Below are positions 4,740 through 30,716 of a DNA stretch of 64,000 bases, one piece after another. The translations under genes were made by a program, and so were the position numbers. The DNA lies in contig JAAYCJ010000014.1 of the NCBI GenBank assembly GCA_012729815.1, positions 1,043 to 65,042 of the forward strand. Direction: 5' to 3'. The DNA comes from Phycisphaerae bacterium (lineage in GTDB: Bacteria > Planctomycetota > Phycisphaerae > JAAYCJ01). Each line of letters begins with the position of its first letter. The first letter of the stretch is position 1. The notes beneath the pieces are model-generated. The model saw nothing but the letters and a program-made list of their open reading frames with translations, made no database searches and was not told the origin of the DNA.

Positions 4740-4794
4740 CTGCGCCTCATGCCGGCCGACTTTTTCTTGCCCGGATGCAACCGCTGGAGTACTA

Positions 4795-4823
4795 TTGAGG
4801 TACAAATTGTTTAATGGTATCAT
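4795..4823 (+). promoter_or_regulatory. Putative sigma70-like promoter for the TPR gene (TTGAGG, 17-nt spacer, TATCAT)
   Basis: The hexamers were found by eye in the AT-richer spacer after the lpxD stop; the predicted start site is about 50 nt upstream of the GTG start at 4881. Confidence 0.25.
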
Positions 4824-4880
4824 AAACTCCGGTAAGAAAATGCCTCAGCCGGGCGAACCGGTGAGGCGGGTCAGGCAGAG

Positions 4881-6341
4881 GTGAGCTACAACCCCCCACA
4901 CATTACGGACGAAGCCAAGAAAACGGCTGCCAAGTTCTTCCAGCATGCTCAGACCGCAGCCGATTCGCGGAGCTTCGACTACGCCATCGAGCTTTATGTC
5001 CAGGGCTTGGCCAAAGACCCTGAGGCGGTCGAGAAGGGGCACATGGCCCTGCGCGAGGTCGGCATCCGGCGGACCAACAGCGGCGGCAAGAAGCCCGGCC
5101 TGATGGAATCGCTGAAGATTTCCAAGTCCAAGAAAGACCCGATCGGGGCGATGCTCGCCGCTGAGATGATGCTGGCCAAGGACCCGCTGAACCTCAAGTA
5201 CGCGGAGGAAATGGTCAAGGCGGCCGACAAGTCCGAATTGCCCGAGACCCTCCGCTGGGCCCTGCAGGTCTACTTTGAGCTCTGCCCGCAGGAGAAGAAG
5301 ATCAGCGTCCAGCGGCTGCTGCTGATCAAGAACCTCTACGAGAAACTGGGCGATTACTATCAGAAACAGGACCGGCTCGATCAGACTCTCGAGGCCTACG
5401 AGAAGGGCATCGGGGCGATGAACTACGCCGTCCAGTCGGGCCAGGGCGGCAGCCTCGATCTCCAGAGCGAGCTGAAGAATCTGGCCACCAAACACGCCAT
5501 CCTCCGCGGCAGGTACGAGCGGGGCGACTTCCGCGATTCGATCAAGGACGCCGACGCCCAGAAGCTCCTGCAGGACAAGTCCCGCCAGGTCAAGGGCGAG
5601 GAACTGCTGACCCAGTTGATCGAGAAGGCCCGGGCCGAAGCGGATGCGAACCCGTCGGTGGGGGCCAAGGTGTTTGCCCTGATCGACCTGCTGACCCAGC
5701 GGGGCAAGCCCGAGGACGAGAAGGAGGCGATCAAGATCCTCGACGACGCCCACCAGCGGACCGGACAGTACAGCTTCAAGATGCGGGCCGACGACCTGCG
5801 AATCCGCCATCAGCGCCGGGCGGTCAAACGCATCGAGGCCAAGGTCAAAGCCGAGGCGACGCCCGATCCGACGCTCCAGCAGCAGCTCGCCGACGCCCGC
5901 CAGCAGCAGGCGGAGCGAGAACTGGCCATCTTCAAGGAGCGGATCGAGCAGTATCCGACGGACACGCGGCTGAAGTTCGAATACGGCCGGCGGCTCTACG
6001 AGTCCAAACGCTACGACGAAGCCATCCCGGTGTTCCAGGAGGCGGTCGGCGATCCCCGCCACGCCGTCCGCGCCCGCTACTACATCGGCACCTGCTTTTT
6101 CCAGAAGGGGTGGCACTCGCAGGCCATCGACATTCTCAACGAAGCCGTCGAGCGCTACGAGACCCTCGGCGACGCCCTCTCCAAGGAAATCTTCTACGTC
6201 CTGGGGCGTTCGCACGAGGAGCTGGAGCAGATCGATCAGGCCCTGAAGATCTACAGCCGCCTGATCCAGTGGGACTTCAACTACCGCGACGTCCGCCACC
6301 GGATCGACAAGCTCCAGGCCAAGAAGAAGATCAATTCCTGA
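4881..6341 (+). CDS. Tetratricopeptide-repeat / coiled-coil protein (GTG start)
   Basis: The K/E-rich, lower-GC composition and helical repeat pattern look natural. The antisense ORF 4845..6299 has typical GC-artefact composition (L/V/G/A/D-rich). Confidence 0.6.
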   Translation: MSYNPPHITDEAKKTAAKFFQHAQTAADSRSFDYAIELYVQGLAKDPEAVEKGHMALREVGIRRTNSGGKKPGLMESLKISKSKKDPIGAMLAAEMMLAKDPLNLKYAEEMVKAADKSELPETLRWALQVYFELCPQEKKISVQRLLLIKNLYEKLGDYYQKQDRLDQTLEAYEKGIGAMNYAVQSGQGGSLDLQSELKNLATKHAILRGRYERGDFRDSIKDADAQKLLQDKSRQVKGEELLTQLIEKARAEADANPSVGAKVFALIDLLTQRGKPEDEKEAIKILDDAHQRTGQYSFKMRADDLRIRHQRRAVKRIEAKVKAEATPDPTLQQQLADARQQQAERELAIFKERIEQYPTDTRLKFEYGRRLYESKRYDEAIPVFQEAVGDPRHAVRARYYIGTCFFQKGWHSQAIDILNEAVERYETLGDALSKEIFYVLGRSHEELEQIDQALKIYSRLIQWDFNYRDVRHRIDKLQAKKKINS

Positions 6342-14426: not shown

Positions 14427-14572
14427 CGTGCTTCCGCCGAACCTGCGTTTTTGGTTGCAGCCGCCTGTGAACTGCTTTATAATCCGTCTTACTTCTGTGC
14501 CTCGTGGGGGTCTGCCAAATGAGGTCGTGGGGCGGGCGATGTCCCGTCGCTGTGCTTGCTGAGGAGAGAGCC

Positions 14573-16849
14573 ATGAAACCGTCAATAATGCTGCCGGCTG
14601 CGTTTCTGTCCGTTTTCTGCTGGGCCAATGCCGCCACCGTCAATGTCTGGCTCGAAATCGACGCTTCGGCCAACGAGTACCGCGTGCTGGCCGAGTGCGT
14701 CGACGACGTCGCTGGGACCTGCGCCGGACTGGCCCTCTACAACGTCACGCTGAGCAACGTGGCGGAGTTGTACAACGACGGTCCGATGGCCTATGACGAG
14801 GCGGGCGAGACCACCACGCCGCTGGCCGGTTTCGTTTTGTTCCGCAGCGACAGCGGGGCCGGCGTCACCACGTTGGGCGCCGCCCAGAATACGTTTGATC
14901 CCAACGGAGCCCAGATCGTGTACGACATCGGCGACCAGGCGGTCGATCTGACCGCGCTCGTTTCAGCCGATGTCTACGTGCCCGCCGACGGTCAGGTCGC
15001 CGTGCCCGTTCAACTGGGCCACGGCACGTTCACCGGCGATCCGCCGAGCATCACCAACGCGACCTTCAATGTCTTTGATCCCGCCCGCGACGGCACCACT
15101 CAGCCGCCCGATACCGTCGCGATTCTCGATCCGGACATCGTCGGCGTCGAATACACCCTGACCGTCAGCGTCCAGGGCCAAGGCACGACCACGCCCGCCG
15201 CGGGCGATCATACGTATGACGAAGGCGTCCAAGTGGCGATCTTGGCCGCCGCCGCCGACGGTTGGCACTTCGTTCGCTGGCAGGGCGACGTGTCGGCCAC
15301 CAGCGCCGCCGCCTCGGTGACCATGAACGCCGACAAGGCCGTCACCGCCGTTTTTGAAGAGGATGCCGCCCAGTATGCCCTGACAGTGCAGGTCCAGGGC
15401 CAGGGGACGACCACGCCGGCCGCCGGCCAGCACACGTATGACGATGGGACGGTCGTTCCTCTCTCAGCCGCCGCCGCCGACGGCTGGCATTTCGTCCGTT
15501 GGCAGGGCGACGTCGCCGGAACCAGTCCCTCCTCCTCCATCACGATCAGCAGCAACAAATCGGTGACCGCCGTCTTCGAGCAGGACGCCGCCCAGTACAC
15601 GCTGACCGTCAACGTCCAAGGTCAGGGCGCGACCACGCCCGCCGCCGGTCAGCACACCTATGATGAAGGGGCCGCCGTCCCGCTGACCGCCACGCCCGCC
15701 GGCGGCTGGCACTTCGTCCGGTGGGAAGGCGACGCCTCCGGCGCCCAGGAGTCCACCCAGGTTACCATGGACAGCGCGATGACCGTCACCGCCGTCTTCG
15801 AGCGAGACACCGCCCAATACGCGCTGACCGTCAACGTCCAGGGCCAGGGCACAACGACGCCCGCCGCCGGTCAGCACACCTACGATCAGGGCGCCCAGGT
15901 AAACCTCGGCGCCACGCCCGCACAAGGTTGGCACTTTGTCCGGTGGGAGGGCGACGTGTCCGGCGTCAATCCGAACGTTGGGGTCACCATGGACTCCAGC
16001 AAGTCCGTCACCGCGGTCTTTGAGCAGGACGCGGCCCAGTACACGCTAACCGTCAACGTCCAGGGCGACGGGACCACCGATCCCAATGCCGGTCAGCACA
16101 GCTACGATGCAAACGCCGCGGTCGAGGTTGCCGCTACCGCCGCCGACGGCTGGCATTTCGTCCGCTGGCAGGGCGATGCGACCGGAACCGCGCCAACCCT
16201 GACCGTCACCATGGACCGCGGCAAGAGCGTCACCGCCGTCTTTGAGCAGGACGCCGCCGAATACGTCCTGACCGTCAACGTCCAGGGCAGCGGCTCGACC
16301 AATCCGGTTCCCGGCCAGCACAGCTACGCGGACGGAACCGAGGTAATCGTCGCGGCCACACCCGTCGAGGGCTGGCACTTTGTCCGGTGGGAGGGCGATT
16401 TGACGGGCGCCACCGCCACGGCATCGCTGACGATGGACGCCAGCCAGTCGATCACCGCGGTCTTCGAGCAGGACGCGGCCCAGTACACGCTGACCGTCAA
16501 CGTCCAGGGCCAGGGCACGACGGCGCCCGCTGCCGGCCAGCATGCCTACGACAGCGGAACCGAGGTCGCCCTCTCGGCTGCCCCGGCCGAAGACTGGGAG
16601 TTCATCCGCTGGGAGGGTGACATCTCCGCGACCGACCCGAACACCACCGTGACCATGAACGCGGGCAAGTCGGTCACCGCCGTTTTCCAAGCCGAGGCGG
16701 TTGATCCCAATGATCCCAACCAGCCGTCCGACCCCAACGAAACCAACGGCGACGTTCCTCCCATCGGCGGATGCCTCATGACCGCCATGGTCGTCGGACT
16801 GGCTGTGGCCTTCGGATTCGCCATGCTCGGACTATATCGGGAGTCGTAG
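14573..16849 (+). CDS. Secreted repeat protein with 7 tandem InlB-B-type (Listeria-Bacteroides repeat, TIGR02543-like) domains and a C-terminal TM anchor
   Basis: Start re-called to MKPSIMLPAAFLSVFCWANA (signal peptide), which has a GGAGAG RBS; the listed ORF start at 14504 is upstream. It contains seven ~74-aa repeats of the form YTLTVNVQGQGTTTPAAGQHTYD...GWHFVRWEGD...SVTAVFEQDAAQ. The C-terminus (VPPIGG, hydrophobic helix, YRES) may be a degenerate PEP-CTERM-like anchor. Confidence 0.75.
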   Translation: MKPSIMLPAAFLSVFCWANAATVNVWLEIDASANEYRVLAECVDDVAGTCAGLALYNVTLSNVAELYNDGPMAYDEAGETTTPLAGFVLFRSDSGAGVTTLGAAQNTFDPNGAQIVYDIGDQAVDLTALVSADVYVPADGQVAVPVQLGHGTFTGDPPSITNATFNVFDPARDGTTQPPDTVAILDPDIVGVEYTLTVSVQGQGTTTPAAGDHTYDEGVQVAILAAAADGWHFVRWQGDVSATSAAASVTMNADKAVTAVFEEDAAQYALTVQVQGQGTTTPAAGQHTYDDGTVVPLSAAAADGWHFVRWQGDVAGTSPSSSITISSNKSVTAVFEQDAAQYTLTVNVQGQGATTPAAGQHTYDEGAAVPLTATPAGGWHFVRWEGDASGAQESTQVTMDSAMTVTAVFERDTAQYALTVNVQGQGTTTPAAGQHTYDQGAQVNLGATPAQGWHFVRWEGDVSGVNPNVGVTMDSSKSVTAVFEQDAAQYTLTVNVQGDGTTDPNAGQHSYDANAAVEVAATAADGWHFVRWQGDATGTAPTLTVTMDRGKSVTAVFEQDAAEYVLTVNVQGSGSTNPVPGQHSYADGTEVIVAATPVEGWHFVRWEGDLTGATATASLTMDASQSITAVFEQDAAQYTLTVNVQGQGTTAPAAGQHAYDSGTEVALSAAPAEDWEFIRWEGDISATDPNTTVTMNAGKSVTAVFQAEAVDPNDPNQPSDPNETNGDVPPIGGCLMTAMVVGLAVAFGFAMLGLYRES
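15152..16695 (+). repeat. Intragenic tandem DNA repeat, 7 copies of ~222 bp at high identity
   Basis: Near-identical nucleotide blocks recur in frame (for example gccgtcttcgagcaggacgccgcccagtacacgctgaccgtcaacgtccagggccagggc). These encode the InlB-B repeats; it is not a CRISPR array. Confidence 0.8.
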
Positions 16850-17044: not shown

Positions 17045-18970
17045 ATGCGGCGATTCCCTTCGGCGGCGATCTGCCTGATTACTGTGTCCGCGGCGGCGTT
17101 CCTGGGGGCCTGCAACGGTCCCGTCAACAACCTGGCCAAGAATCAGGAGTATCTCCTGACGGTCAGCGTCGAGGGCCATGGCACGGTCAGCCCGGACACC
17201 CTCACCTACAACGCCGGGACTTCCGTGGTCCTCGTGGCGGAGCCCGCCGCCGGCTGGCACTTCGTCCGATGGGAAGGCTCCGGTCAGGGCACCGGCGATA
17301 CGCTGCAACTGGTCATGGACCGCGATCGCGCGGTCACCGCGGTTTTTGAGGAGGGTGTGCTTCAATACACCTTGACCGTGGAAGTCGAGGGCCAGGGCAG
17401 CGTTAACCCTTCATCCGGCGCGCATGGGTACGATCCGAATTCCATCGTTAACCTCACCGCCACCGCCGCCGACGGCTGGCGCTTCGTCGAGTGGCAGGGC
17501 TTCGCCGGCGGGACCGACCCTGCGACCACCGTTACCATGACCGGCAACAAGACGGTCAAAGCCGTCTTCGAGGAGGATACGTCGCAGACGCTGACCATCG
17601 CGGTTCAGGGCCAGGGTACGGTCGATCCGGCGGTCGGTCAGCACGAGTATGAGAGGGACACGCAGGTGAGCGTGAAGGCCGCCGCCGCCGACGGCTGGCA
17701 CTTCGTTCGATGGGAAGGGGACGCCGCCGGCAACACACCCAGCGCGACCGTCTCCATGGACGCCGACAAGACGGTCACCGCCGTCTTTGAAGAGGACAGC
17801 GACGCATACAACCTGACCATCGCCGTCAGCGGCCAGGGGACCACCGATCCCGCCGCCGGGACTCACAGCTATCCTGCCGACGGATCGGTCAGCCTGACCG
17901 CCGCCGCCGCCGCCGGCTGGCATTTCGTCCGCTGGCAGGGCGACGCCCAGGGCACCTCGCCGACGGTCGAATTGACGATGGGTTCGGCCAAGACGGTCAC
18001 CGCGATCTTCGAGGAGGACGCGGCCGAATATACCCTCACCGTCTCGGCCATCGGCCAGGGCACCGTGGATCCGGCCGTCGGAGGCTACAGCTACGCCGAC
18101 GGCCAGCAGGTCACGCTGACCGCCACGGCGGGCGAGAGCTGGCGGTTCGACCGCTGGCAGGGCGACGTGACCGGGACGGACAACCCCGTCACGGTGACCA
18201 TGTCCGCCACCCGCAGCGTGACCGCCGTCTTCGTCCGCCAGTATCGCCTGAGCGTGGCCGCGACCGGCCAGGGAACCACCAGCCCGGCCGTTGGCGATCA
18301 TTTCTACGACGTCGGCCAGACCGTGACCGTCTCAGCCACGCCCGCCAACGGCTGGCGATTCCTCGATTGGACCGGCGACCTGTCCTCGTCCAACCAGAGC
18401 GCCGATCTGGTCATGGACGACGACAAGGCCATCACCGCCTCCTTCGGCGGCGCGGGCGTCCAGGTCATGATCGAAACCTCCAAAGGCAATATTCTCGTCG
18501 AACTGGACGATGAGCTGGCGCCGGTCACCGTCGAAAACTTCCTCAGTTACGTCGATGAGGGGTTCTACGACGGGACCGACGGCAAAGAGGCCACCATCTT
18601 CCACCGCGTGATTCCCGATTTCATGGTTCAGTGCGGCGGCTTCACCGAAGAGCTGGAAGAGAAGGAGACGCACGACCCGATCGTCCTCGAGTCGGACAAC
18701 GGCTTGAGGAACGTGCGGGGCACGATCGCGATGGCCCGCACCACCGAACCCGACAGCGCCACCTCGCAGTTTTTCATCAACGTGGTGGACAACGATTTCC
18801 TCAACTACGCGAGCGAAGCGAAGCCCGGCTACGCCGTTTTCGGCCGCGTGCTGGAGGGCATGGACGTCGCCGACGAGATCGTCGCCGTCGAGACCGCCTC
18901 CGTCGGTCCGCACGACGACGTGCCGGTGGAGGCCATCTTCATTACCTCCGTGTATCGCGTTGAGGAATGA
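17045..18970 (+). CDS. Lipoprotein with six InlB-B-type repeats fused to a C-terminal cyclophilin-type peptidyl-prolyl isomerase domain
   Basis: The signal peptide carries a lipobox (FLGAC). Six GWHFVRWEGD-type repeats follow. The C-terminal 170 aa (VMIETSKGNILVELDDELAPVTVENF...[15 protein letters not shown]...ARTTEPDSATSQFFINV) is a clear cyclophilin. Confidence 0.8.
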   Translation: MRRFPSAAICLITVSAAAFLGACNGPVNNLAKNQEYLLTVSVEGHGTVSPDTLTYNAGTSVVLVAEPAAGWHFVRWEGSGQGTGDTLQLVMDRDRAVTAVFEEGVLQYTLTVEVEGQGSVNPSSGAHGYDPNSIVNLTATAADGWRFVEWQGFAGGTDPATTVTMTGNKTVKAVFEEDTSQTLTIAVQGQGTVDPAVGQHEYERDTQVSVKAAAADGWHFVRWEGDAAGNTPSATVSMDADKTVTAVFEEDSDAYNLTIAVSGQGTTDPAAGTHSYPADGSVSLTAAAAAGWHFVRWQGDAQGTSPTVELTMGSAKTVTAIFEEDAAEYTLTVSAIGQGTVDPAVGGYSYADGQQVTLTATAGESWRFDRWQGDVTGTDNPVTVTMSATRSVTAVFVRQYRLSVAATGQGTTSPAVGDHFYDVGQTVTVSATPANGWRFLDWTGDLSSSNQSADLVMDDDKAITASFGGAGVQVMIETSKGNILVELDDELAPVTVENFLSYVDEGFYDGTDGKEATIFHRVIPDFMVQCGGFTEELEEKETHDPIVLESDNGLRNVRGTIAMARTTEPDSATSQFFINVVDNDFLNYASEAKPGYAVFGRVLEGMDVADEIVAVETASVGPHDDVPVEAIFITSVYRVEE

Positions 18971-19073: not shown

Positions 19074-19876
19074 ATGACCGATCAGGTGCAGTTCGACGCC
19101 GCACGGCTCTTCGACCTGTCCGGCCGGGTCGCCATCGTCACCGGCGCCGCCCGCGGCAACGGACGGGCCATTGCCGAAGGCTTGGCTGCGGTCGGCGCGC
19201 CGTGGTGCTTGCCGATGTCCTGGCGGACGAACTGCAAAGCGTTGAGCAGGCCGTCGCCGAGCGCGGCGGCCGAGCCCTGGCTGTGCCCACCGACCTGCGC
19301 AACAATGACGATCTTATCTCGCTGGTCGAAAAGGCGGCAGGGGAGTTCGGGCGGATCGATGTTCTCGTCAACTGCGCCGGGGTCAGCGTTGGCGGGCCGT
19401 CGCACGAGTATGCCGAAACCGACTGGCGGTTCACCTTCGACGTCAACGTCGACGCCGCCTTCAAACTCGCCAAGCTCGTCGCCGTCCACATGATCCCGCA
19501 GCGGTCCGGCTCGATCATCAATATCACCAGCATCGGCGCCGCCCAGGGCTTTCCCAACAACCCAGCGTACCAGGCCTCGAAGGGCGCCCTTCAGCAGCTC
19601 ACGCGAGCCTTGGCCACCGATTGGGCCAGATACAACATCCGCGTCAATAACCTCTGTCCCGGTTACTTTATGACCGCGATGACCCGCAAGAGCTGGTCCA
19701 ATCCGCAGATCGCCTCCCGCCGCGCCGCCCGCTGCATGCTCAACCGCTGGGGCGAACCGCGCGAACTGGTCGGGCCGGTGATCTTCCTGGCCTCCGAAGC
19801 TTCCAGCTACATGACCGGCAACGACCTCTTCATCGACGGCGGATTCAACAAGACGGGAATCCTGGAAGGGCAGTAG
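19074..19876 (+). pseudogene. Short-chain dehydrogenase/reductase (SDR) gene disrupted by a 1-nt deletion near 19199-19202
   Basis: The N-terminus LSGRVAIVTGAARGNGRAIAEGLAAVGA is in frame 0. The continuation VVLADVLADELQ...NCAGV...YQASKGAL (SDR catalytic YxxxK) is in frame 2 as ORF 18983..19876. Only 2 nt separate the frame-0 and frame-2 codons, where the intact gene needs 3. Confidence 0.65.
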
Positions 19877-19981
19877 CCGTTCGCCGCAAGCGGTTCCTTT
19901 CTGGTCCGCCTGTTCGCCTCTCGCTATAATGCTCTCTGGCCTGTTTGCGCGGCTTGACACCATCGAACCGGGAGAACCTCT

Positions 19982-20935
19982 GTGGACTGGATATTCGATC
20001 GTCGAAGTGGAGCGCGTGTATCCGACCGGCTCGAGCTCGCCGGCGGACCGGTGGTCGTTCTGGAAAACGAGCGTCTCCGCGCGGTCTGCCTGGCCGGCAA
20101 GGGGGCGGACATCGTCTCGCTGTTCAACAAGGACGCGGCCTGCGAATGCCTCAGCCAGCCGTATCCCACCTTTCCCTTCCGGCCCGGCGAGGCGCCCGCT
20201 CTCGGCCGCGAATTCGGCAAGTACATGACCGTCTGGCCCGAGATGTTTCCCGTGGCCAGCGCCTGGGGCGATTACTTCGGCCAGGCCCAGCCGTTCCACG
20301 GTGAGGCCCGCCTGCTCGCCTGGCGGCACGAGATCATCGAGGACTCCCCCCAACGCGTCTCGGTCCGGCTGTCGGCCCGGATGCAGCTCAGCCCGTTCCG
20401 GCTGACCCGCACCATGACCCTCGATGCCGACTCGCCCGTCCTGGCCCTCGACGAGCGCGTCGAGAATCTCGCCAACCAGCCGCTGCCGGTCCTTTGGGGC
20501 CACCATCCGACCTTTGGACCGCCGTTCCTCGACGAGACCTGCCGCGTCCAACTGCCCGGCGGCGACTACATCGACGGCGACGACTCGATGCTCCAACTCG
20601 CTCCGCCCGGCTCCGGCGTCCACAACATGTTCTATCGCCTCAACCTCTCATCCGGCCGGTGTGGCCTGTTCAGCCACAAACGCGGCTTCGGTGTCGGTCT
20701 GCGATTCGATCACCAGCTCTTTCGCGTCATCTGGATTTGGCAGGGCCTCAACCAAAACAGCGGCGCGCCAAACTTCGACACCCGCTACGCCTGCGCGGTC
20801 GAGCCGGTCACCGGCCTGCCCAAACAGCACGCCCAAAGCGACCGGACGCCGCCGATCCTCGTCCATCCCGAAACGCCGCTGACCACCCGCCTCGACGTAT
20901 TCCTCTACACCGACCAAAGGGACCTGGAGGATTGA
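19982..20935 (+). CDS. Hypothetical protein, possibly galactose mutarotase-like (aldose-1-epimerase superfamily, DUF4432-like)
   Basis: GTG start with a GGGAGAA RBS. Composition is natural. The segment WGHHPTFGPPFLDE is mutarotase-like, a weak call. It is tightly coupled to the next gene with a 2-nt gap. Confidence 0.4.
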   Translation: MDWIFDRRSGARVSDRLELAGGPVVVLENERLRAVCLAGKGADIVSLFNKDAACECLSQPYPTFPFRPGEAPALGREFGKYMTVWPEMFPVASAWGDYFGQAQPFHGEARLLAWRHEIIEDSPQRVSVRLSARMQLSPFRLTRTMTLDADSPVLALDERVENLANQPLPVLWGHHPTFGPPFLDETCRVQLPGGDYIDGDDSMLQLAPPGSGVHNMFYRLNLSSGRCGLFSHKRGFGVGLRFDHQLFRVIWIWQGLNQNSGAPNFDTRYACAVEPVTGLPKQHAQSDRTPPILVHPETPLTTRLDVFLYTDQRDLED

Positions 20936-20937
20936 CG

Positions 20938-21501
20938 ATGGGCGAACTTCGACCACCGCCGCCGGCCAAGCTGTTTGTCGCGATGCTCGTCGCGCCGGAC
21001 GTTGCCGGCCGCGTCGACCGGATCGACGGGCGGCTGATCGAGTGTTTCGGCCCCATCGATCTGGTCAGTCCCGATTTCTCCTTCGAGTTCACCGACTACT
21101 ACAAGGCCGAGATGGGCGAGAATCTGGTCCGTCGTATCGTCAGCTTCGAATCCCTCTTCGATCCGGCCGGGCTGCCGGCGGTCAAGCACCGCACCAACGA
21201 CCTGGAAGCCGAGTTGACGGCTGAGCTGCGTAATCCTGAGTCCGGCCGGGCGGTCAACCTTGACGCGGGCTATCTGACCCTCGGCCAACTCGTTCTGGCC
21301 ACCACCAAGAGCCACGCCCACCGTCTCTACCTGCGCGACGGGATATGGGCTGAGGTCACCCTCCGCTATCACAAGGGCGACTACGAAAAATGGCCCTGGA
21401 CCTATCCGGACTATGCCTCCGGACGGTATAATTCGTTCTGGCGACCGATGCGCGACAAACTCAAGCGGCAGATGGAGGAAACGCAAAGCTCCCATGAATG
21501 A
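20938..21501 (+). CDS. Small conserved hypothetical protein (DUF4416-like)
   Basis: Start re-called to the ATG of MGELRPP, which has a GGAGGA RBS; the listed ORF 20494 is an upstream GC extension. The 187-aa protein contains NLDAGYLTLGQLVLATTK..HAHRLYLRDGIWAEVTLRY. Confidence 0.5.
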   Translation: MGELRPPPPAKLFVAMLVAPDVAGRVDRIDGRLIECFGPIDLVSPDFSFEFTDYYKAEMGENLVRRIVSFESLFDPAGLPAVKHRTNDLEAELTAELRNPESGRAVNLDAGYLTLGQLVLATTKSHAHRLYLRDGIWAEVTLRYHKGDYEKWPWTYPDYASGRYNSFWRPMRDKLKRQMEETQSSHE

Positions 21502-22600
21502 CCCTTCCACCGCCACGCTGGCCCGCATGCTCCTGCTGATCGCCGGGCCCTCAGCGGTCGTCAGTTTCGGCCTGTGCTACCTGATGCGGGTGTTGGCCCC
21601 GGCGCTCGGTTATATGGACCGTCCCGGCGGCCGCAAGAGCCACCCGCGCGCCATGCCGATGGGCGGCGGCGTCGCCGTCGTGCTGACGGTGATCGCCTTG
21701 ATCGCGGCGGGGATCGCCGCGGTGCTCTCCGATGTCTACGCCTCGTTTCCCGCGTTCGACTGGCTCGCCGTGCACCGCGAAGGCCTGGCCTTGCGGCTCC
21801 ATCAATTGGCCGGCGTCCTGTTCTGCGGGCTGATCCTCCTCGTTCTGGGCGTCTTCGACGACGTCAAGGATCTCGGCCCCAGGTTCAAACTCCTCGTCCA
21901 GTTCCTTCTGGCCGGTCTGGTGGTCTTCGGGTTCGACGTTCAGGCGACGGTCTTCCTGCCCGCGCCGATCCTCGGTTCGCTGCTGACCGTGCTGTGGATC
22001 GTGGTCATCACCAACGCCTTCAACTTCCTGGACAACGCCGACGGCCTGGCCTCCGGCGTCGCCCTTATCTGCACCGCCGTGCTGATCGCCGTCGCCGTCG
22101 GCTCGGGCCAGATCTTCGTCTCAGCCTATCTGGCCTGCTTCGCCGGGGCGATCATCGGATTCCTGCTTCACAATTTCCCGCCCGCCCGCATCTACCTCGG
22201 CGACGCGGGCAGCCAGCCCATTGGCTTCCTGCTCGCCGTCGGCACCATCCTGACCACCTATTATCAGGAGCAGTCGCCCGATCAGCTCCGCACCGCCGTC
22301 TTTATTCCGCTTATCATCATGGCCATTCCGCTCTACGATTTCTTCTCGGTGATCGTCATCCGGCTGCGGGCGGGCAAGAGCCCGTTCGTCGGCGACCACC
22401 GGCATTTCTCGCACCGCCTGCTGCAGCGCGGCCTGCGGGTGCGCGACGTGGTGCTGACCATCTACCTGGCCTGCGGCGCCACCGCCGTCGGAGCGATCGT
22501 CCTTCAGCAGGTCGCCTGGCCGTACGCGATGCTCATCTTCCTCCAGACCCTCTGCATCGTCGCCATCATCGGCATTCTGGAGTATCAGCCGAAAAAGTGA
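21494..22600 (+). CDS. Polyprenyl-phosphate sugar-1-phosphate transferase (glycosyltransferase family 4, WecA/MraY/TagO-like)
   Basis: Family motifs are present: DRPGGRKSH, VFDDVKDL, NAFNFLDNADGLASG. It has about 10 TM segments. The start (MNDPST) overlaps the upstream gene by 8 bp. Confidence 0.8.
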   Translation: MNDPSTATLARMLLLIAGPSAVVSFGLCYLMRVLAPALGYMDRPGGRKSHPRAMPMGGGVAVVLTVIALIAAGIAAVLSDVYASFPAFDWLAVHREGLALRLHQLAGVLFCGLILLVLGVFDDVKDLGPRFKLLVQFLLAGLVVFGFDVQATVFLPAPILGSLLTVLWIVVITNAFNFLDNADGLASGVALICTAVLIAVAVGSGQIFVSAYLACFAGAIIGFLLHNFPPARIYLGDAGSQPIGFLLAVGTILTTYYQEQSPDQLRTAVFIPLIIMAIPLYDFFSVIVIRLRAGKSPFVGDHRHFSHRLLQRGLRVRDVVLTIYLACGATAVGAIVLQQVAWPYAMLIFLQTLCIVAIIGILEYQPKK

Positions 22601-22601
22601 C

Positions 22602-24914
22602 ATGAACGCCACGGCCCGACCGCACAACCCGGTCCGCGAGAAGCTCTCAGCCGCCCTGTTCGTGATGCTGCTGATCGTGATCGGCGTCGCCTCCATCAGC
22701 CAACTCCGCTGGACCAGCCCTTCCGGCCAGATGGACAGCAGCTTCGGCGGCGGTTACGATCTGACCGCTGCGGCGGTCATGGGTCTGGTGGTCCTGCTGG
22801 TTGGCGCGGCTGCGTGGATCGTCTGCCCGTGTCGGCCGCGACTGAACCTGCTGCTGGCCGCTGAGATCCTCTTCGTCGCCGGCCTGATCGTCTCGACCTG
22901 GTTCGCCGCCGACCATCGCGTTGCCCTCAACTACGCCGCCGGCTTCGTCGTGTGCCTCGTGCTCATGCACGCGACGTTCCGCCTGACCGACCGGCCGTGG
23001 AAGGTGCGGCTCGCCCTGATCGCCCTGGTCGCTCTGGGAACCATCTTCGCCCTCAAGACCTGGAGCCGCGAACTCTACGAGACCGACCAGACCTGGACGC
23101 AGTACCTCGAAACCCGCGAGCAGCTCTGGGCTCGTCAGGGCAAGGCGCTCGACGACCCAGCGGTCAAGCTCTACGAGGCCCGCCTGCTGAGCCGCGACAA
23201 CGGCGGCTTCTTCTTTCACGGCAATCTCGGCGGGGCCTATCTGGCCTTCCTTTTGATGGTCAGCCTCGCCGCCGTCGCCAACCGCCTTCGCGACCGGGCC
23301 GGGCCGTACCAGAAGACCTGGCTGGCGGTCCAGGTGCTGCTGTCGCTGCTGATCGCCTCCGCCCTGGTCATCACCTACAGCAAGGGCGCGATGATGGCTT
23401 TGGGCATTGCGCTGATGGCCTCGATGATCCTGCTGCTCTTTGGGCGGCGGCTGCGGCGGCGGGTCAACCTGGCCGCACTCGTCGCGCTGCTGATCGTGCT
23501 GGCCGGTTTCGCCGCGGTCATCGGCCACGGCCTGGCCCGAAACACGCTGCCGACGCTGTCGATGGCGTTTCGCTGGCAGTACTGGACCGCCGGCTGGCAT
23601 ATGTTCCTCGACCATCCGCTGACCGGCGTCGGGCCCGGCAACTTCGGCTATCACTACATGCGCTACAAACTGCCCGAAGCCGAAGAGGAGGTTCTCTCGC
23701 CGCACAATTTCATCGTGCAGGGCTTCACCGAATTCGGCATCCTCGGCGGCCTCGGCATCGTCCTGCTGCCGCTGGCGATCTTCTACAGCCTTGCCCGCTC
23801 CGCCGCCGCCGATTCGCCGCCGCTGTCCGTTCTCGAATCGCAGCCGCCCCGCGCCGGCCCGCTGATGCTCATCATCCTCGCCGGCATCTACATCTTCGCC
23901 GTCGCGTTCAACCAGACCGGCCTGGACAACCCGCTGATCCTGTTGGCGCTTCACTGGCCCTACATCCTCGGTTTCGCCCTGAGTTTCACCCTCTCGTCGC
24001 TCCGCTTCGACGAACTTGGCGACATCGACGACCGCTTCGGCGGCCGCGGCAAGCTCGTCGATCCGCCGGTGCTGGTCTTCCTCGCTGGCGCGCTGGTGCT
24101 CTTTGTCGCGGGCAACCTGGTCAACTTCTCGTTCTTCGAGCCTTCGAACCAGTTCCTGTTCTTCTTCATAGCGGGCCTGGCGCTCGCCGCGGCGCCCCCG
24201 CAGACATCGCTCACGACGCCCAAGTGCGACCTGGCCAAATCCGCCGGTCTGGCCGTCCTGGCCCTGCTGTTCCTGATCTACGTTGTCGTGCCCGCCGCCC
24301 GCATCGAGACCGCGGTGGCCGACGCCGAAGACTCACCGCCCGCCCGCGATCCCGCCTTCGATCAGCCGTATCAACGCCTGGTCGAGCTTACCGAGCAATA
24401 TCCCTTCGACCCGCACCCGCCCGCCAAGGCCGCTGAGCGGCTGCTGCGACTCGCCCAGCCCGGCGTCGCTCCGGAGCTTCTGATCGCGCAGGCGGTCAAA
24501 CACTTCCAGCAGGCCCGCAGCCGCGCGCCGCAAGTCTACCGTTTCTGGCGGGCTGAGGCCCAGGCATGGCTCCTGCTCGCCGAGACCCGCCCGACCCGCG
24601 CCGATCACGCCTACACCCAGGCCGAAACGCTCCTCGACTGCGCCCTGGAACTGGCCCCGCGCTCTCGTTCGCTCTGGGTCACCGCGGGCCTGACCTCCTA
24701 CCAGCACGCCGTCGCCCTCGAGCCCGCTCAGCCCGACCGCGCCGCCCGCCTCGCCCTCCAGGCCAAAGAGCGTCTTACCACCGCGCTCGAACTCAACGAC
24801 GCCCTTCCCGAAAACTCCCTGCGCCGCTTCCCGCCGTCCCAAATGCGGCAGATCCACAGCGCCCTGGCCTCGCTGGATACCTTCCTCTCCCAGACCACCC
24901 AGCCCGCCCCATAA
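22602..24914 (+). CDS. Wzy_C (O-antigen ligase / O-oligosaccharyltransferase) family membrane protein with a C-terminal TPR-like soluble domain
   Basis: Wzy_C motifs YSKGAMMALG and HPLTGVGPGNFGYHY..PHNFIVQGFTEFGILGG are present. The C-terminal ~230 aa are helical and TPR-like. It starts 1 nt after the upstream stop. Confidence 0.75.
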   Translation: MNATARPHNPVREKLSAALFVMLLIVIGVASISQLRWTSPSGQMDSSFGGGYDLTAAAVMGLVVLLVGAAAWIVCPCRPRLNLLLAAEILFVAGLIVSTWFAADHRVALNYAAGFVVCLVLMHATFRLTDRPWKVRLALIALVALGTIFALKTWSRELYETDQTWTQYLETREQLWARQGKALDDPAVKLYEARLLSRDNGGFFFHGNLGGAYLAFLLMVSLAAVANRLRDRAGPYQKTWLAVQVLLSLLIASALVITYSKGAMMALGIALMASMILLLFGRRLRRRVNLAALVALLIVLAGFAAVIGHGLARNTLPTLSMAFRWQYWTAGWHMFLDHPLTGVGPGNFGYHYMRYKLPEAEEEVLSPHNFIVQGFTEFGILGGLGIVLLPLAIFYSLARSAAADSPPLSVLESQPPRAGPLMLIILAGIYIFAVAFNQTGLDNPLILLALHWPYILGFALSFTLSSLRFDELGDIDDRFGGRGKLVDPPVLVFLAGALVLFVAGNLVNFSFFEPSNQFLFFFIAGLALAAAPPQTSLTTPKCDLAKSAGLAVLALLFLIYVVVPAARIETAVADAEDSPPARDPAFDQPYQRLVELTEQYPFDPHPPAKAAERLLRLAQPGVAPELLIAQAVKHFQQARSRAPQVYRFWRAEAQAWLLLAETRPTRADHAYTQAETLLDCALELAPRSRSLWVTAGLTSYQHAVALEPAQPDRAARLALQAKERLTTALELNDALPENSLRRFPPSQMRQIHSALASLDTFLSQTTQPAP

Positions 24915-24970
24915 AAAAAGAGGCCGCCCAACAGCGACCTCTTCTATTCTGGCTTCTGACTTCCGCCTTC

Positions 24971-25654
24971 TTACTTCTTTTCCGCCTTCTCGATCACCAC
25001 CGGCTCGGCCGGCACATTCTCGTGCGGTCCGACCCTCGTCGTCCGCACCGCGACGATCTTGTCCACCACGTCCATCCCCTCGACCACCTTGCCGAACACC
25101 GCGTAGCCCGGATTCCGCGCCCCGCGATAGTTCAGGAAATCGTTGTTCGCCACGTTGACAAAGAACTGCGCCGTCGCGCTGTCCGGATCGGCGGTCCGCG
25201 CCATCGCGATCGTGCCGCGCAGGTTCTTCAAGCCGTTCGCGGCTTCGTTCTTGATCGGCTTGTGCACCCGCTTCTGCTCCATCCGCGGCGTGAACCCGCC
25301 GCCCTGGATCATGAAGTCCGGGATCACCCGGTGAAAGATCGTCCCGTCGAAATGCCCCTCTTCGACGTACCGCAGGAAGTTCTTCGCTGTGATCGGCGCC
25401 TTCTCTTCATTCAGCTCCAGCACGATCCGGCCCATGCTCGTCTCGAGCACCACCTGCGGCGCCTTCGGCTGGGTGGTCGGCTGAGTCGCCGGCTGCGTCG
25501 AAGCCTGCTCGCTCGGCCTGGTCGTCGGTTTCTGATCCGTCATGGTCGTCTCCTTTGTGGTTCCTTCATCCGCCCGGCTTTCCCAACTGCCGTACCCGAT
25601 CAGCCACGCCAGTCCCGCCGTCAACGCCCCAGCCGCGATCAGTGAACGCTTCAT
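24971..25654 (-). CDS. Secreted cyclophilin-type peptidyl-prolyl cis-trans isomerase
   Basis: A signal peptide and a Thr/Pro/Gln-rich linker precede the cyclophilin core ([15 protein letters not shown]...[17 protein letters not shown]). It is a paralog of the C-terminal domain of 17045..18970. Confidence 0.85.
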
Positions 25655-27476: not shown

Positions 27477-30400
27477 ATGACGTCGTCGAAACGAAGGAAA
27501 CCGGACCACAACAAGCCTGATGGCGACCAATCGCCGGCACCGACGCCAGAGCACGATCAGGCCCACGATCAGGCCCAGCAAGAGGCCGCCGACAAGGGCC
27601 GGTCCGAGGCTCCAGACCAGGCGCAAGACTCGGAACGCCAACAGGTTGAGGGCGAAGACGTCCAGCCGACCGACGAATGGCTCAGCCAGGGCCGCCAGGA
27701 TCAATCCAAAAGCCAGGAGACTTCCCAGCCCCCCGAGCAGGCTGACCAAGAGGCCCAACCCCGTCCGGCCCTGTTCGTGGCCGGAGTCGGGGCCTCAGCC
27801 GGAGGGGTCCGGGCCATCGAGGAGTTCTTCTCCGAAATGCCGCAGGGCTCGAAGATCGCCTTCGTCATCCTCCAGCATATGGCGCCGGGCCACCGCAGCG
27901 TCCTGGACGCCCTGATCCGCCGAAAGACCGAAATCACCGTTGAAGAGGCCCAGGAAAAAGCCCGTCTCCAGGCCGATCACGTCTACGTCGTCCAGTCCGG
28001 CAGGGACGTGGACTTCCGCGACGGCTGTTTCCACTTCGAAGCCTCCGGCGAGGAACGCGGCAGCCGCATGCCCATCGACCACCTCTTCCGATCGCTCGCC
28101 GCTGAGTTCGGCGACCGCGCCATCGCCGTCATCCTCTCCGGAGCGGGAAGCGACGGGACGCTGGGCCTCAAGGAGATCAAGGGCGAAGGCGGCGTGGTCA
28201 TGGTCCAGGATCCTGACGAGGCTGAATACGCCAGCATGCCCAGCAGCGCCGTAGCCACCGCGCTGGCCGACATGGTCCTGCCCGTCCGCCGGATGGCCGA
28301 GGAATTGCTCCGCTACGTGGACCACCCAGCCGCCGGCGCCACGCCGGCCGCCGAACGCGAGACCAACGAGCGGAAGTTCGAAAAGAACGTCCAGCGGATC
28401 ATCCAGATCGTCCGGGCCAAGACCGGACACAACTTTGTCCACTACAAACAGAACACCATCCGTCGGCGGATCCAGCGGCGGATCGCCGTCCACCAACTTC
28501 CCGATATCGAGGAGTACGTCAAATTCCTCCGCCAGAACCCCGACGAGGTCCAGGCCCTCTTCCGCGACCTGTTGATCAACGTGACCAGCTTCTTCCGCGA
28601 TCCGGAGGCCTGGGTTGCCCTCCAGGAGGACGTGGTCACGCCCATCGTGCGAGACCGTGACCCGGAAGAACCCATCCGCGTCTGGGTTCCCGGCTGCGCC
28701 ACCGGTGAGGAGGCCTACTCCGTGGCCATCCTCTTCGCCGAGGCCATGGACCGCCTCGAACGCCAGATCCCGATCAAAATCTTCGCCACCGACATCAGCC
28801 CCGAGGGCATCGACGCCGCCCGCGACGGCTGCTACCCGCCCAACATCGCCGCCGACCTGACGCCCGCGCGCCTCAAGGAGTATTTCGTCAAGAAGGAAGA
28901 GCAGTACCGCGTGGTCAACCGAATCCGCGAAATGGTCGTCTTCGCCGTCCACGACCTGACCCGCGACCCGCCGTTCTCCCAACTCGACCTGATCACCTGC
29001 CGTAACCTCCTGATCTACATGGACCAGGACCTCCAGAAAACCATCCTCCCCGTCTTCCACTACAGCCTGGCCCGAGGCGGGTGCCTGTTTCTGGGCACTT
29101 CCGAGGGCGTCGGCGATTTCCTCCAAATGTACGCCCCGGTCGACAAGAGGTGGAAGATCTACCGGGTCGAACCGGTCTCCAGCGAGCGGCACATCGAGGA
29201 ATTCCGCCAGGCCATCCTCGGCCTCGAGCCGCCAAGACTCCGACGCGTGATCGCCATGGCGGACCGCGAGAAACCGCGGGAAAAAGAAACCCGATCCGGT
29301 GATCGCGAGGATCGGCCCGCTCCGCCCGCGCCCGTCGACGCCCGCGAGGTCCTGCGGCGGACCATGATGGACCGCTACGCCCCGCCCGCCGTCCTGCTCG
29401 ACCACGACTTTAACGTCCTCTACTTCCACGGCGAGACCGACAAGTTCCTCCGCCCTCCCCAGGGCGAGCCGGCGTTCAACCTCCTCGCCATGGCCCGCGA
29501 TAGCCTGCTCTACCGCCTCACCGTCGCCCTCCGCGAGGCCCGCAGCGAAGGCAAGCCCGTCCGCTGCGAACAAATCCCGGTCCGTCGCACCGACGGGCGG
29601 TTCTTCAACGCCGACCTGACCATCAGCCCCCTCGAACGCCAGCGCGGCGGCCCGCGGCTCCTTTTGGTCACCTTCGAGGAGCACCCCGGACCTGATGACG
29701 AGGAGGCCCGACAGGCCGACCGCGACCGCGAATCCGACGCCCGTCACCAAGACCTCCAGGACCAGCTCAACTCCACCCGCCAGGACCTCCAGGCCACCAT
29801 CGAGGAACTCGAAACCTCCAACGAGGAACTCAAGAGCGCCAACGAGGAGCTTCAAGCCAACAACGAAGAGCTCCAGAGCGCCAACGAGGAACTCGAGGCC
29901 TCCCGCGAGGAACTCCAGAGCGCCAACGAGGAACTCGAGACGGTCAATACCGAACTCCACCGCCGCAACGAAGCCCTCACCGAGGCCCACGACGACATCA
30001 ACAACTTCTTCGGGGCCACCGACATCGCCACCCTCATCCTCGACACCAGGCTCCGCATCAAGCGATTCACCCCGGCGACCAAGCGGATCTTCAACCTGAT
30101 CGACGCCGACCACGGACGGGTCATCACCGATCTCACCTCGCAGCTCATTGACGTGGACCTGCTGGACCAGGCCCGCGACGTGATCGACACCCTCGACAAA
30201 AAGGAACTCGAGGTCCGGACCCGCGACGGCGGCTGCTACCAGTTGCGAATCCTGCCCTACCGCACCGCCGACAACGTCATCGAGGGCGTCGTCCTGACCT
30301 TCCAGAACATCAGCGAGGTCAAGCGAGTCCAGGAGCGGGCCCGCGACGCCCAGCGTTACGCCGAAAGCGTCATCGCCACCGTCCGCGAGCCTCTGGTCGT

Positions 30401-30716
30401 CCTCGACGACAGCCTGCGGGTGGTCTCAGCCAACAACGCGTTCTTCCGCGAGTTCGGTTTGGACCCTCAGCGAACCTCCGGAAAGCACGTGTATGAACTC
30501 GACGATCGCCAGTGGGCCGGCGATCAACTCCGCCACCTGCTGGAAAAGATCGTTCCCCAAAACGAGGAGTTCAACGACTTCCGCGTTGAACACCGCTTTC
30601 CGGACGGACAGACCAAGATCATGCTCCTGAACGCCCGGCGGATCCAACGCCAGACCGAACGCGGACAACTCATCCTGCTGGCCATCGAAATCGTCCCAAA
30701 GGAGGGACAAGAATGA
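27477..30716 (+). CDS. CheB methylesterase / CheR methyltransferase fusion protein with a coiled-coil and a C-terminal PAS domain
   Basis: CheB block LFVAGVGASAGGVRAIEEF...FVILQHM. CheR block NVTSFFRDPEAW...RVWVPGCATGEEAYSVAILF. A heptad-repeat coiled coil ELETSNEELKSANEELQANNEELQSANEEL and a PAS-like C-terminus follow. AAAGGAG RBS. Confidence 0.85.
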   Translation: MTSSKRRKPDHNKPDGDQSPAPTPEHDQAHDQAQQEAADKGRSEAPDQAQDSERQQVEGEDVQPTDEWLSQGRQDQSKSQETSQPPEQADQEAQPRPALFVAGVGASAGGVRAIEEFFSEMPQGSKIAFVILQHMAPGHRSVLDALIRRKTEITVEEAQEKARLQADHVYVVQSGRDVDFRDGCFHFEASGEERGSRMPIDHLFRSLAAEFGDRAIAVILSGAGSDGTLGLKEIKGEGGVVMVQDPDEAEYASMPSSAVATALADMVLPVRRMAEELLRYVDHPAAGATPAAERETNERKFEKNVQRIIQIVRAKTGHNFVHYKQNTIRRRIQRRIAVHQLPDIEEYVKFLRQNPDEVQALFRDLLINVTSFFRDPEAWVALQEDVVTPIVRDRDPEEPIRVWVPGCATGEEAYSVAILFAEAMDRLERQIPIKIFATDISPEGIDAARDGCYPPNIAADLTPARLKEYFVKKEEQYRVVNRIREMVVFAVHDLTRDPPFSQLDLITCRNLLIYMDQDLQKTILPVFHYSLARGGCLFLGTSEGVGDFLQMYAPVDKRWKIYRVEPVSSERHIEEFRQAILGLEPPRLRRVIAMADREKPREKETRSGDREDRPAPPAPVDAREVLRRTMMDRYAPPAVLLDHDFNVLYFHGETDKFLRPPQGEPAFNLLAMARDSLLYRLTVALREARSEGKPVRCEQIPVRRTDGRFFNADLTISPLERQRGGPRLLLVTFEEHPGPDDEEARQADRDRESDARHQDLQDQLNSTRQDLQATIEELETSNEELKSANEELQANNEELQSANEELEASREELQSANEELETVNTELHRRNEALTEAHDDINNFFGATDIATLILDTRLRIKRFTPATKRIFNLIDADHGRVITDLTSQLIDVDLLDQARDVIDTLDKKELEVRTRDGGCYQLRILPYRTADNVIEGVVLTFQNISEVKRVQERARDAQRYAESVIATVREPLVVLDDSLRVVSANNAFFREFGLDPQRTSGKHVYELDDRQWAGDQLRHLLEKIVPQNEEFNDFRVEHRFPDGQTKIMLLNARRIQRQTERGQLILLAIEIVPKEGQE

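Follow-up and report, generated by a model that had tools for sequence, protein, structure and literature searches.

The 64-kb window analysed here, a stretch of contig JAAYCJ010000014.1 from a Phycisphaerae metagenome-assembled genome (MAG), contains a block of four closely packed genes between positions 19982 and 24914. A first reading made from the DNA without database searches, hereafter the sequence-only reading, had described this block as a candidate glycan-assembly operon, in which a polyprenyl-phosphate sugar-1-phosphate transferase stands directly before a Wzy_C-domain protein with a C-terminal tetratricopeptide repeat (TPR) domain. The four open reading frames (ORFs), denoted G1 to G4, were found as it had reported them (lengths in amino acids, aa; TM, transmembrane):

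19982–20935, + strand: G1, DUF4432/galactose-mutarotase-like protein, 317 aa, GTG start (Pfam DUF4432, E = 6.5e-13)
20938–21501, + strand: G2, DUF4416 protein, 187 aa, predicted cytoplasmic (Pfam, E = 6e-53)
21494–22600, + strand: G3, predicted WecA-like polyprenyl-phosphate N-acetylhexosamine (HexNAc)-1-phosphate transferase of the PNPT/MraY superfamily, 368 aa (Pfam Glycos_transf_4, E = 2e-32)
22602–24914, + strand: G4, predicted membrane glycosyltransferase of the Wzy_C family (WaaL/PglL-like), 770 aa, with 15 predicted TM helices ahead of a TPR domain at the C-terminus (Pfam Wzy_C, PF04932, E = 1.5e-22)

The intergenic distances are 2 nucleotides (nt) for G1/G2, −8 nt for G2/G3 and 1 nt for G3/G4: the ATG of G3 lies in an 8-nt overlap with the stop of G2, and G4 starts 1 nt past the stop of G3. 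Shine-Dalgarno-like sequences are present 7 nt 5' of the G2 start (GGAGG) and 14 nt 5' of the G3 start (GGAGGA), in both cases within the end of the preceding gene. This spacing is compatible with translational coupling, as had been proposed. Gene callers run independently on three assemblies of this organism gave identical models for G2 to G4. The locus recurs in GCA_036800125.1 as well as in assemblies from JGI and ENA, and the G2 protein is identical to the NCBI entry 'DUF4416 family protein [Phycisphaerae bacterium]'. The label 'GT4' given to G3 in the sequence-only reading stands for Pfam Glycos_transf_4 (PNPT, the polyprenyl-phosphate N-acetylhexosamine-1-phosphate transferase family) and not for CAZy GT4. 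No second Wzy_C or Glycos_transf_4 gene was found in the 64-kb window.

Conservation of the gene pair and of its upstream partners

The gene contexts of G2 and G4 homologues were combined with a DUF4416-profile scan of 185,579 species genomes, and the loci were scored with hidden Markov models for G2, G3, the G4 core and the G4 tail. G3 and G4 were adjacent in all 14 distinct loci holding both, among which the identity of G4 to the window protein drops to about 24%. The two genes overlap by 4 to 32 nt in 11 loci and are separated by 1 nt in the window and by 53 nt in L077; the junction in L087 stems from a mechanical ORF call and is uninformative. Of 21 informative Planctomycetota loci, 9 had DUF4416 directly upstream of G3-G4 and in the same orientation; of 43 loci from other phyla, none did (Fisher p = 1e-5). 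Its recurrence before the pair in Planctomycetota is statistically real and unexplained, and pairs without DUF4416 were found as well. The block consists of a conserved two-gene core, G3-G4, with a phylum-restricted upstream partner, DUF4416, and a lineage-specific DUF4432 gene. The proposal of a glycan-assembly operon therefore stood for G3-G4, which recur together, and did not stand for the four genes as a unit, DUF4432 being confined to one lineage and DUF4416 being widespread. The co-occurrence check suggested for DUF4416 gave a positive answer in part of the Planctomycetota loci and a negative one in the other phyla.

Downstream of G4, no conserved fourth gene was detected in the related loci, where the genes at this position are unrelated to each other (an asparagine synthase, an ADP-ribosylglycohydrolase, an esterase-like protein). 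Two loci carry, closely 3' of the G4 orthologue and on the same strand, a multi-pass membrane protein of about 500 aa with no Pfam match (L007 10959–12467, +; L013 4258–5751, +; mutual identity 48%). It overlaps the G4 stop in L007, is absent from the window and may be a further membrane glycosyltransferase. The asparagine synthase homologue lies directly 3' of the G4 orthologue in a locus with all three of DUF4416, G3 and G4, binned as Pirellulales (L049 10051–12081, +). The S-layer glycosylation cluster of Paenibacillus alvei also includes an asparagine synthase homologue, WsfA (PMC2943079); this parallel is a single case and possibly a coincidence.

G1 passed the gathering threshold of DUF4432 (score 48.6, threshold 32.5), with a match restricted to profile positions 122–282 of 304, and its Aldose_epim match stayed below threshold (E = 5e-05, 23.3 bits, cut-off 27). 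Being mutarotase-like, it might have a sugar as substrate. No homologue of G1 occurred in any related locus, and among 92 loci it was present only in assemblies of the same organism, so that by gene content G1 appears as a lineage-specific addition to the block. In the NCBI MAG the gene is frame-broken (L001 9012–9998, with a 236-aa gene called); the window, like the JGI and ENA assemblies, has it intact (317 aa).

G2 is a clear member of its family, matching PF14385 with 179.5 bits (gathering threshold 27) over profile positions 2–161 of 162. It has neither a signal peptide nor a TM segment. The family has 25 invariant residues, mostly polar. An AlphaFold2 model of G2 showed an alpha/beta fold with a pLDDT of 95.9, for which Foldseek found no match in the PDB at E ≤ 1e-3. 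A weak ferredoxin-like likeness to HPPK and to SAM lyase was seen, with TM-scores of at most 0.42 normalised to the model. The DUF4416 profile matched no PDB sequence, these PDB comparisons gave no fold or sequence tie to sugar or lipid enzymes, and no mention of DUF4416 was found in the literature. The profile scan placed the family in at least 592 species genomes from many phyla, where its neighbours vary: YicC, Gmk and SpoU genes in Desulfobacterales, RadC or a LysM-YkuD gene in Anaerolineae, PgpA/PgsA-like genes, or a preceding short-chain dehydrogenase/reductase (SDR) gene. The Desulfobacterales neighbourhood was seen in nine loci (L027, L032, L044, L046, L048, L074, L082, L088 and L092), with yicC directly 3' of DUF4416, gmk and a SpoU methylase gene next in eight of the nine, and in most of them a ComF-like phosphoribosyltransferase gene thereafter. 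This is a conserved housekeeping set unrelated to glycans. Neighbourhoods that vary in this way and are mostly of a housekeeping kind speak against DUF4416 being dedicated to glycans. A family so widespread, and found beside unrelated genes outside some Planctomycetota, gives no evidence of being a glycan enzyme. Our data thus correct the idea of DUF4416 as a glycan gene, and draw attention to a widespread, well-folded family without a structural neighbour in the PDB.

These observations bear on the possibility that all four genes form one dedicated pathway, with G1 and G2 preparing or modifying the sugar or the lipid on which G3 and G4 act. The 2- and −8-nt junctions with their internal Shine-Dalgarno-like sites speak for it, as do the association of DUF4416 with the pair in Planctomycetota and the many invariant polar residues of DUF4416, which are enzyme-like. 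In one locus, moreover, the neighbours of DUF4416 include PgpA and a CDP-alcohol phosphatidyltransferase, a hint of lipid metabolism. However, G1 is missing from every related locus, DUF4416 usually occurs without Glycos_transf_4 or Wzy_C genes nearby, G3-G4 pairs exist without it, and nothing in its fold or sequence ties it to sugar or lipid enzymes. We consider a dedicated four-gene pathway quite improbable.

The predicted initiating transferase and the TPR-tailed membrane protein

G3 shares 28% identity with Escherichia coli WecA (b3784; E = 2e-23) and keeps the motifs DD, NxxNxxDxxDGL and GDAGS. The HIHH motif, which is associated with UDP-GlcNAc specificity, reads HFSH in G3, so that the nucleotide-sugar specificity is not fixed by this motif. 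The score against the WecA profile TIGR02380 was 112.9 bits and did not reach the cut-off of 326. An assignment of G3 as MraY was rejected (TIGR00445, 39 bits against a cut-off of 192). Judged from motifs and scores, G3 is a predicted WecA-like PNPT initiating phosphoglycosyl transferase rather than a demonstrated WecA orthologue.

The features of G4 on which its assignment rests are the following:

23382–23384, + strand: K261, in the turn between TM7 and TM8, kept in at least 90% of family members
23541–23735, + strand: conserved putative catalytic loop between TM9 and TM10, residues 314–378, predicted periplasmic, with invariant columns in profiles A1 and A3
23571–23573, + strand: R324, in this loop, invariant
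23703–23705, + strand: H368, in this loop, invariant
24300–24911, + strand: TPR-like tail, residues 567–770, eight helices, about four repeats, predicted periplasmic (family profile and Foldseek)

The Wzy_C match spans residues 247–386 and is present in all 29 family members. The AlphaFold2 model of the protein had a pLDDT of 89 and a pTM of 0.91. Besides the listed residues, E160, R194 and N208 are also (near-)invariant in the family, most of them in a family-specific 53-residue loop between TM5 and TM6 that is predicted to be periplasmic, and two acidic residues, E362 and E363, are conserved beside H368. In a weak hhalign alignment (E = 0.043, probability 1.2%), R215, R288 and H338 of E. coli WaaL, which are reported to be functionally important (PMC3643930), fall onto K261, R324 and H368 of G4. 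The solved WaaL structure 7TPG was matched marginally by profile A1 (E = 4.9e-4 over 86 residues), and the broader 13-sequence core profile A3 did not match it at E ≤ 1. The best NCBIfam matches of G4, IctB (25 bits) and TfpM (15.8 bits against a cut-off of 600), were both far under their cut-offs. A Foldseek search with full-length G4 returned only TPR proteins, and the membrane core did not bring WaaL into the first 50 matches. The core of G4 was therefore classified from sequence profiles.

In an exhaustive HMMER search with a threshold of E ≤ 1e-30, the G4 family comprised at least 2,198 clusters at 50% identity; the majority of the 150 best matches aligned end to end, with lengths of 740 to 830 aa. 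Where sources name a member at all, it is as 'O-antigen ligase (family protein)', in one case for a protein from Planctomycetota. The family is large, unstudied and uniform, with about 760 aa.

No Pfam TPR family was called at threshold in G4. The 29-sequence family profile, however, matched engineered consensus-TPR proteins with E = 1.5e-23 at profile positions of about 620–730, and the model ends in eight antiparallel helices (588–766) that superpose on consensus TPR structures with TM-scores of 0.68 to 0.74 normalised to the TPR target. One such structure was 8cqp_C (TM-score 0.74, rmsd 2.5 Å, 143 columns), and the TPR domains of OGT were also among the Foldseek matches of the tail. Syntenic orthologues showed sub-threshold matches to TPR_11, TPR_14, TPR_16 and TPR_17. 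On the evidence of profile and model, we take the TPR tail to be real despite the missing Pfam call.

As for its orientation, the N-terminus in the 15-helix model is rich in Lys and Arg and was taken as cytoplasmic, and the short 'inside' loops bear positive charges. Counting helices from a cytoplasmic N-terminus would place the loop 314–378, which follows TM9 as in WaaL, in the periplasm. Six more helices follow this loop, and the TPR tail would hence be periplasmic too, on the side of the catalytic loop.

The conserved acidic residues beside H368 bring up a further function, that of a Wzy-type polymerase extending a G3-primed, lipid-diphosphate-linked repeat unit, for which the periplasmic TPR domain would serve as a scaffold toward outer-membrane export. 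Pfam Wzy_C includes polymerases, and systems for exopolysaccharide export typically have TPR scaffolds. A polymerase would be hard to reconcile with the absence of a linked Wzx, Wzz/PCP or OPX gene in any context examined, and with the invariant histidine itself: His at this position marks ligases, whereas in related families of inverting polymerases Asp or Glu takes its place (PMC10920833). We regard a polymerase as very improbable.

Boundaries of the block and neighbouring genes

Three further elements flank the block:

19875–19895, + strand: terminator-like hairpin just past the stop of the upstream SDR gene (consensus scan only)
19925–19930, + strand: TATAAT, a perfect hexamer 52 nt 5' of the G1 start (read from the sequence)
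24919–24942, no strand assigned: A-run, hairpin and T-rich element separating G4 from the convergent cyclophilin gene, with a terminator-like call on the − strand (24935–24923)

The hairpin likely forms the 5' boundary of the transcription unit. A role of the TATAAT hexamer as −10 element would be speculative; the promoter scan did not call it because the −35 region is poor. The element 3' of G4 is likely a bidirectional terminator.

The SDR gene (adh_short, 19074–19876, +) upstream of the block is split over two reading frames. Its N-terminal Rossmann motif (MTDQ...TGAARGNG) and the remainder of the protein are read in different frames, the two being separated by a 1-nt break near 19200, within a GGCGCGCC run. 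Gene callers on three assemblies call only a C-terminal part of 224 aa. The break could be genuine, a pseudogene or frameshift, or could be an error common to the assemblies. Further upstream, two large secreted or anchored proteins with tandem divergent InlB B-repeat (Flg_new_2) domains are encoded at 14504–16849 and 17045–18970 (+). Both have a recurring 'GWHFVRWEGD' motif, and a cyclophilin peptidyl-prolyl isomerase domain is fused to the C-terminus of the second. Beyond the block, at 27477–30716 (+), lies a gene for a 1,079-aa fusion of CheB methylesterase, CheR methyltransferase and PAS domains that contains a long coiled-coil linker; the next gene encodes a PAS histidine kinase.

Proposed function, acceptor and comparison with known systems

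We consider it highly probable that G3 and G4 are an initiating transferase and a transferase moving a glycan from undecaprenyl diphosphate to an acceptor. The whole of our best explanation, in which they form the functional core and would be the first and last enzymes of a pathway for a polyprenyl-diphosphate-linked glycan, we hold at close to an even chance. Gene order, domains, conserved residues, the TPR fold and synteny were established by the analysis. The chemistry, which we infer as we do topology and acceptor, draws on established knowledge of PNPT and Wzy_C/GT-C enzymes and on the conserved residues. At the cytoplasmic face, G3 would use a UDP-sugar to load polyprenyl phosphate with HexNAc-1-phosphate or a similar sugar-1-phosphate. 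The resulting lipid-diphosphate-linked sugar might be extended by unlinked glycosyltransferases and would be flipped by an unlinked flippase. At the periplasmic face, G4 would transfer the glycan en bloc from the lipid-diphosphate donor to a hydroxyl group of the acceptor, with K261 and R324 holding the diphosphate and H368 activating the acceptor, as proposed for WaaL. The three TM helices beyond the 12 of WaaL would bring the TPR domain into the periplasm, beside the active site, where its most likely role would be recruitment of a protein acceptor. If the tail does recruit proteins, G4 would be O-oligosaccharyltransferase-like and possibly also active on lipopolysaccharide (LPS). G2 would be co-transcribed and is probably translationally coupled to G3-G4, and G1 would be a mutarotase-like, lineage-specific add-on.

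A protein as the acceptor of G4 is our tentative choice, rated somewhat short of an even chance, and is favoured by the predicted periplasmic TPR domain, the precedent of WsfB and PglL, the location outside LPS clusters and the distance from WaaL. The sequence-only reading had seen in the transferase and its TPR-tailed Wzy_C neighbour a resemblance to PglL/PilO-type or O-antigen ligase systems, and a C-terminal TPR motif has indeed been reported for WsfB and PglL (PMC2943079). It had also named as decisive against its interpretation a firm clustering of the Wzy_C protein with WaaL together with a lack of conserved synteny. G4 does not cluster firmly with WaaL, and the synteny recurs elsewhere. 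Taken as a whole, its observation was confirmed and its interpretation partly supported.

Several points weigh against a protein O-glycosylation pair. The very wide distribution of the G4 family in Planctomycetota is just as much what a housekeeping function in the envelope, for instance LPS ligation, would lead one to expect. Since TPR domains also act as scaffolds in polysaccharide export, their presence alone does not point to protein substrates. The topology derives from the parity of 15 helices and the Lys/Arg distribution rather than from measurement, and the mapping of the WaaL residues onto K261, R324 and H368 is provisional given the weak alignments (E from 0.043 to 4.9e-4). PglL_A (PF15864) and Wzy_C_2 (PF11846) were absent from all 29 family members among the matches listed at E ≤ 1, which cover 25 of 35 families, those outside the 25 matching at most one of the 29 members each. 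Neither a flippase nor an elongating glycosyltransferase gene is linked to the pair, no conserved acceptor gene such as a pilin stands next to it, the flanking genes varying from locus to locus, and the four more distant G4-family members examined have no Glycos_transf_4 neighbour.

Some of these points would suit a lipid acceptor. G4 could be the planctomycetal O-antigen/core ligase of WaaL type, or a ligase for another lipid as is TacL, with G3 as the WecA that primes the O-unit and the TPR domain docking to the Lpt/export machinery or to a chain-length regulator. The Wzy_C domain with WaaL-type residues, the source annotations as 'O-antigen ligase family protein' and the size of a family apparently general in Planctomycetota are in line with it; WecA and WaaL are the canonical first and last enzymes of O-antigen assembly, PglL motifs are missing, no acceptor gene is linked, and there are Wzy_C ligases that act on lipids other than lipid A (TacL, PMC5727136). 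A weak additional hint comes from a kinase-like gene of about 260 aa, which matches the Ser/Thr kinase 7wj6 in the PDB at E = 5e-7 and RIO1, WaaY and Kdo/WaaP families below threshold, and is divergently adjacent in four loci. Three of them belong to the four distant members, where G4 is divergent from a conserved pair of this gene and one for an acidic protein of about 166 aa with no Pfam match (L095 3639–4912, L097 3428–4838 and L098 3582–4876, all −); in L087, which has DUF4416, G3 and G4, the kinase-like gene (4772–5569, −) is divergent from DUF4416. On the other hand, the solved WaaL is barely similar to G4, a similarity lost with the broader profile, and the architecture differs (15 TM helices and a 200-aa tail against 12 TM helices and about 400 aa). 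In none of the roughly 15 contexts examined did G4 lie inside an LPS core or O-antigen cluster, and a protein-binding repeat domain is not obviously needed for a lipid acceptor. We consider such a ligase, and with it an LPS or other lipid acceptor, rather doubtful, and leave a small share of the probability, beyond protein, lipid and polymerase readings, to some other function; sequence alone cannot separate protein from LPS as the destination of the glycan.

Returning to a protein acceptor, the product of the cyclophilin gene convergent with G4 (24971–25654, −) begins with a signal or anchor sequence, after which comes a low-complexity linker rich in Thr, Pro and Gln. Such a linker is weakly suggestive of the substrate type of general O-oligosaccharyltransferases (O-OTases), and the adjacency of the cyclophilin gene to G4 is not kept in relatives. 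In its furthest form, which we find unlikely, G3-G4 would be a compact, Planctomycetota-specific system for general protein O-glycosylation. A WecA-like primer would start a short lipid-linked glycan, and a new class of 15-TM Wzy_C OTase, apart from PglL, PglS, TfpO and TfpM, would use its periplasmic TPR domain to pick envelope or surface proteins, with DUF4416 as a cytoplasmic accessory.

We know of no ligase or oligosaccharyltransferase characterised in Planctomycetota, whose surface glycoconjugates are poorly understood. The present work defines a large, uniform family of about 760 aa, in public databases labelled only 'O-antigen ligase family protein', in which a Wzy_C core is combined with three additional TM helices and with a TPR domain of predicted periplasmic location. 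The subclade in which G4 is hard-wired to a WecA-like initiator offers a two-gene handle on protein versus LPS glycosylation. If the TPR domain selects protein acceptors, the family would be a fifth class of bacterial O-OTases and a possible tool for glycoengineering; if G4 is the planctomycetal WaaL, it would be an unexpected elaboration of that enzyme.

Compared with known systems, G3 resembles E. coli WecA in the DD, NxxNxxDxxDGL and GDAGS motifs and in the expected transfer of a sugar-1-phosphate to polyprenyl phosphate, and differs from it in the equivalog score (113 against 326 bits) and in HFSH instead of HIHH. G4 shares with WaaL (E. coli b3622; Cupriavidus metallidurans 7TPG; GT121) the Wzy_C domain, by prediction a large periplasmic loop after TM9, and presumably a polyprenyl-diphosphate-linked glycan as donor. 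In the weak alignment, an Arg and a His of this loop fall onto R288 and H338, and a basic residue onto R215 (Lys in G4, Arg in WaaL). WaaL, however, has a cytoplasmic C-terminus and no extra domain, whereas the C-terminal ~200 aa of G4 are predicted to be periplasmic; the sequence likeness is marginal, and G4 lies outside LPS clusters. Dual-function WaaL proteins are known from Helicobacter pylori and Aggregatibacter actinomycetemcomitans (PMC9553153; bioRxiv 10.1101/2022.10.31.514599), and the functions of WaaL and of O-OTases must be separated experimentally (PMC3643930, PMC12645811).

TacL, the lipoteichoic acid ligase of Streptococcus pneumoniae, is like G4 a member of the Wzy_C family; it transfers a polyprenyl-diphosphate-linked polymer to an acceptor other than lipid A, and so illustrates the broad acceptor range of these ligases (PMC5727136). 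Unlike G4, it belongs to a Gram-positive organism and acts on a glycolipid. The eukaryotic TMTC1-4 and OGT are TPR-guided glycosyltransferases, in which a catalytic part is combined with a TPR array choosing protein substrates, as may be the case in G4; their catalytic folds and donors are unrelated or distantly related, and the comparison is one of analogy rather than evidence of homology. To our knowledge, TacL has no TPR tail.

The PglL-type OTases (PglL, PglS, PilO/TfpO and TfpM) share with G4 the Wzy_C core, what appears to be the same Arg/Arg/His logic and an expected en bloc transfer from a lipid-diphosphate donor. PglL genes are situated outside LPS loci (PMC3643930), as is G4. The G4 family differs in belonging to another phylum, in lacking an adjacent pilin or acceptor gene and in lacking PglL_A and Wzy_C_2, of which one or both flanking Wzy_C is the criterion for PglL and PglS (PMC3643930, PMC12645811). 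TfpO and TfpM also lack these domains, and an acceptor gene beside the OTase is not universal for general O-OTases (PMC12645811). The last comparison is with WsfB, the tyrosine O-OTase of the P. alvei S-layer. WsfB sits in a cluster with glycosyltransferases, a transporter and the S-layer target gene, whereas no S-layer glycan cluster genes were found within 10 kb on either side of G4 or in the related loci; in its reported architecture, a Wzy_C domain followed by a C-terminal TPR domain (PMC2943079), it is like G4.

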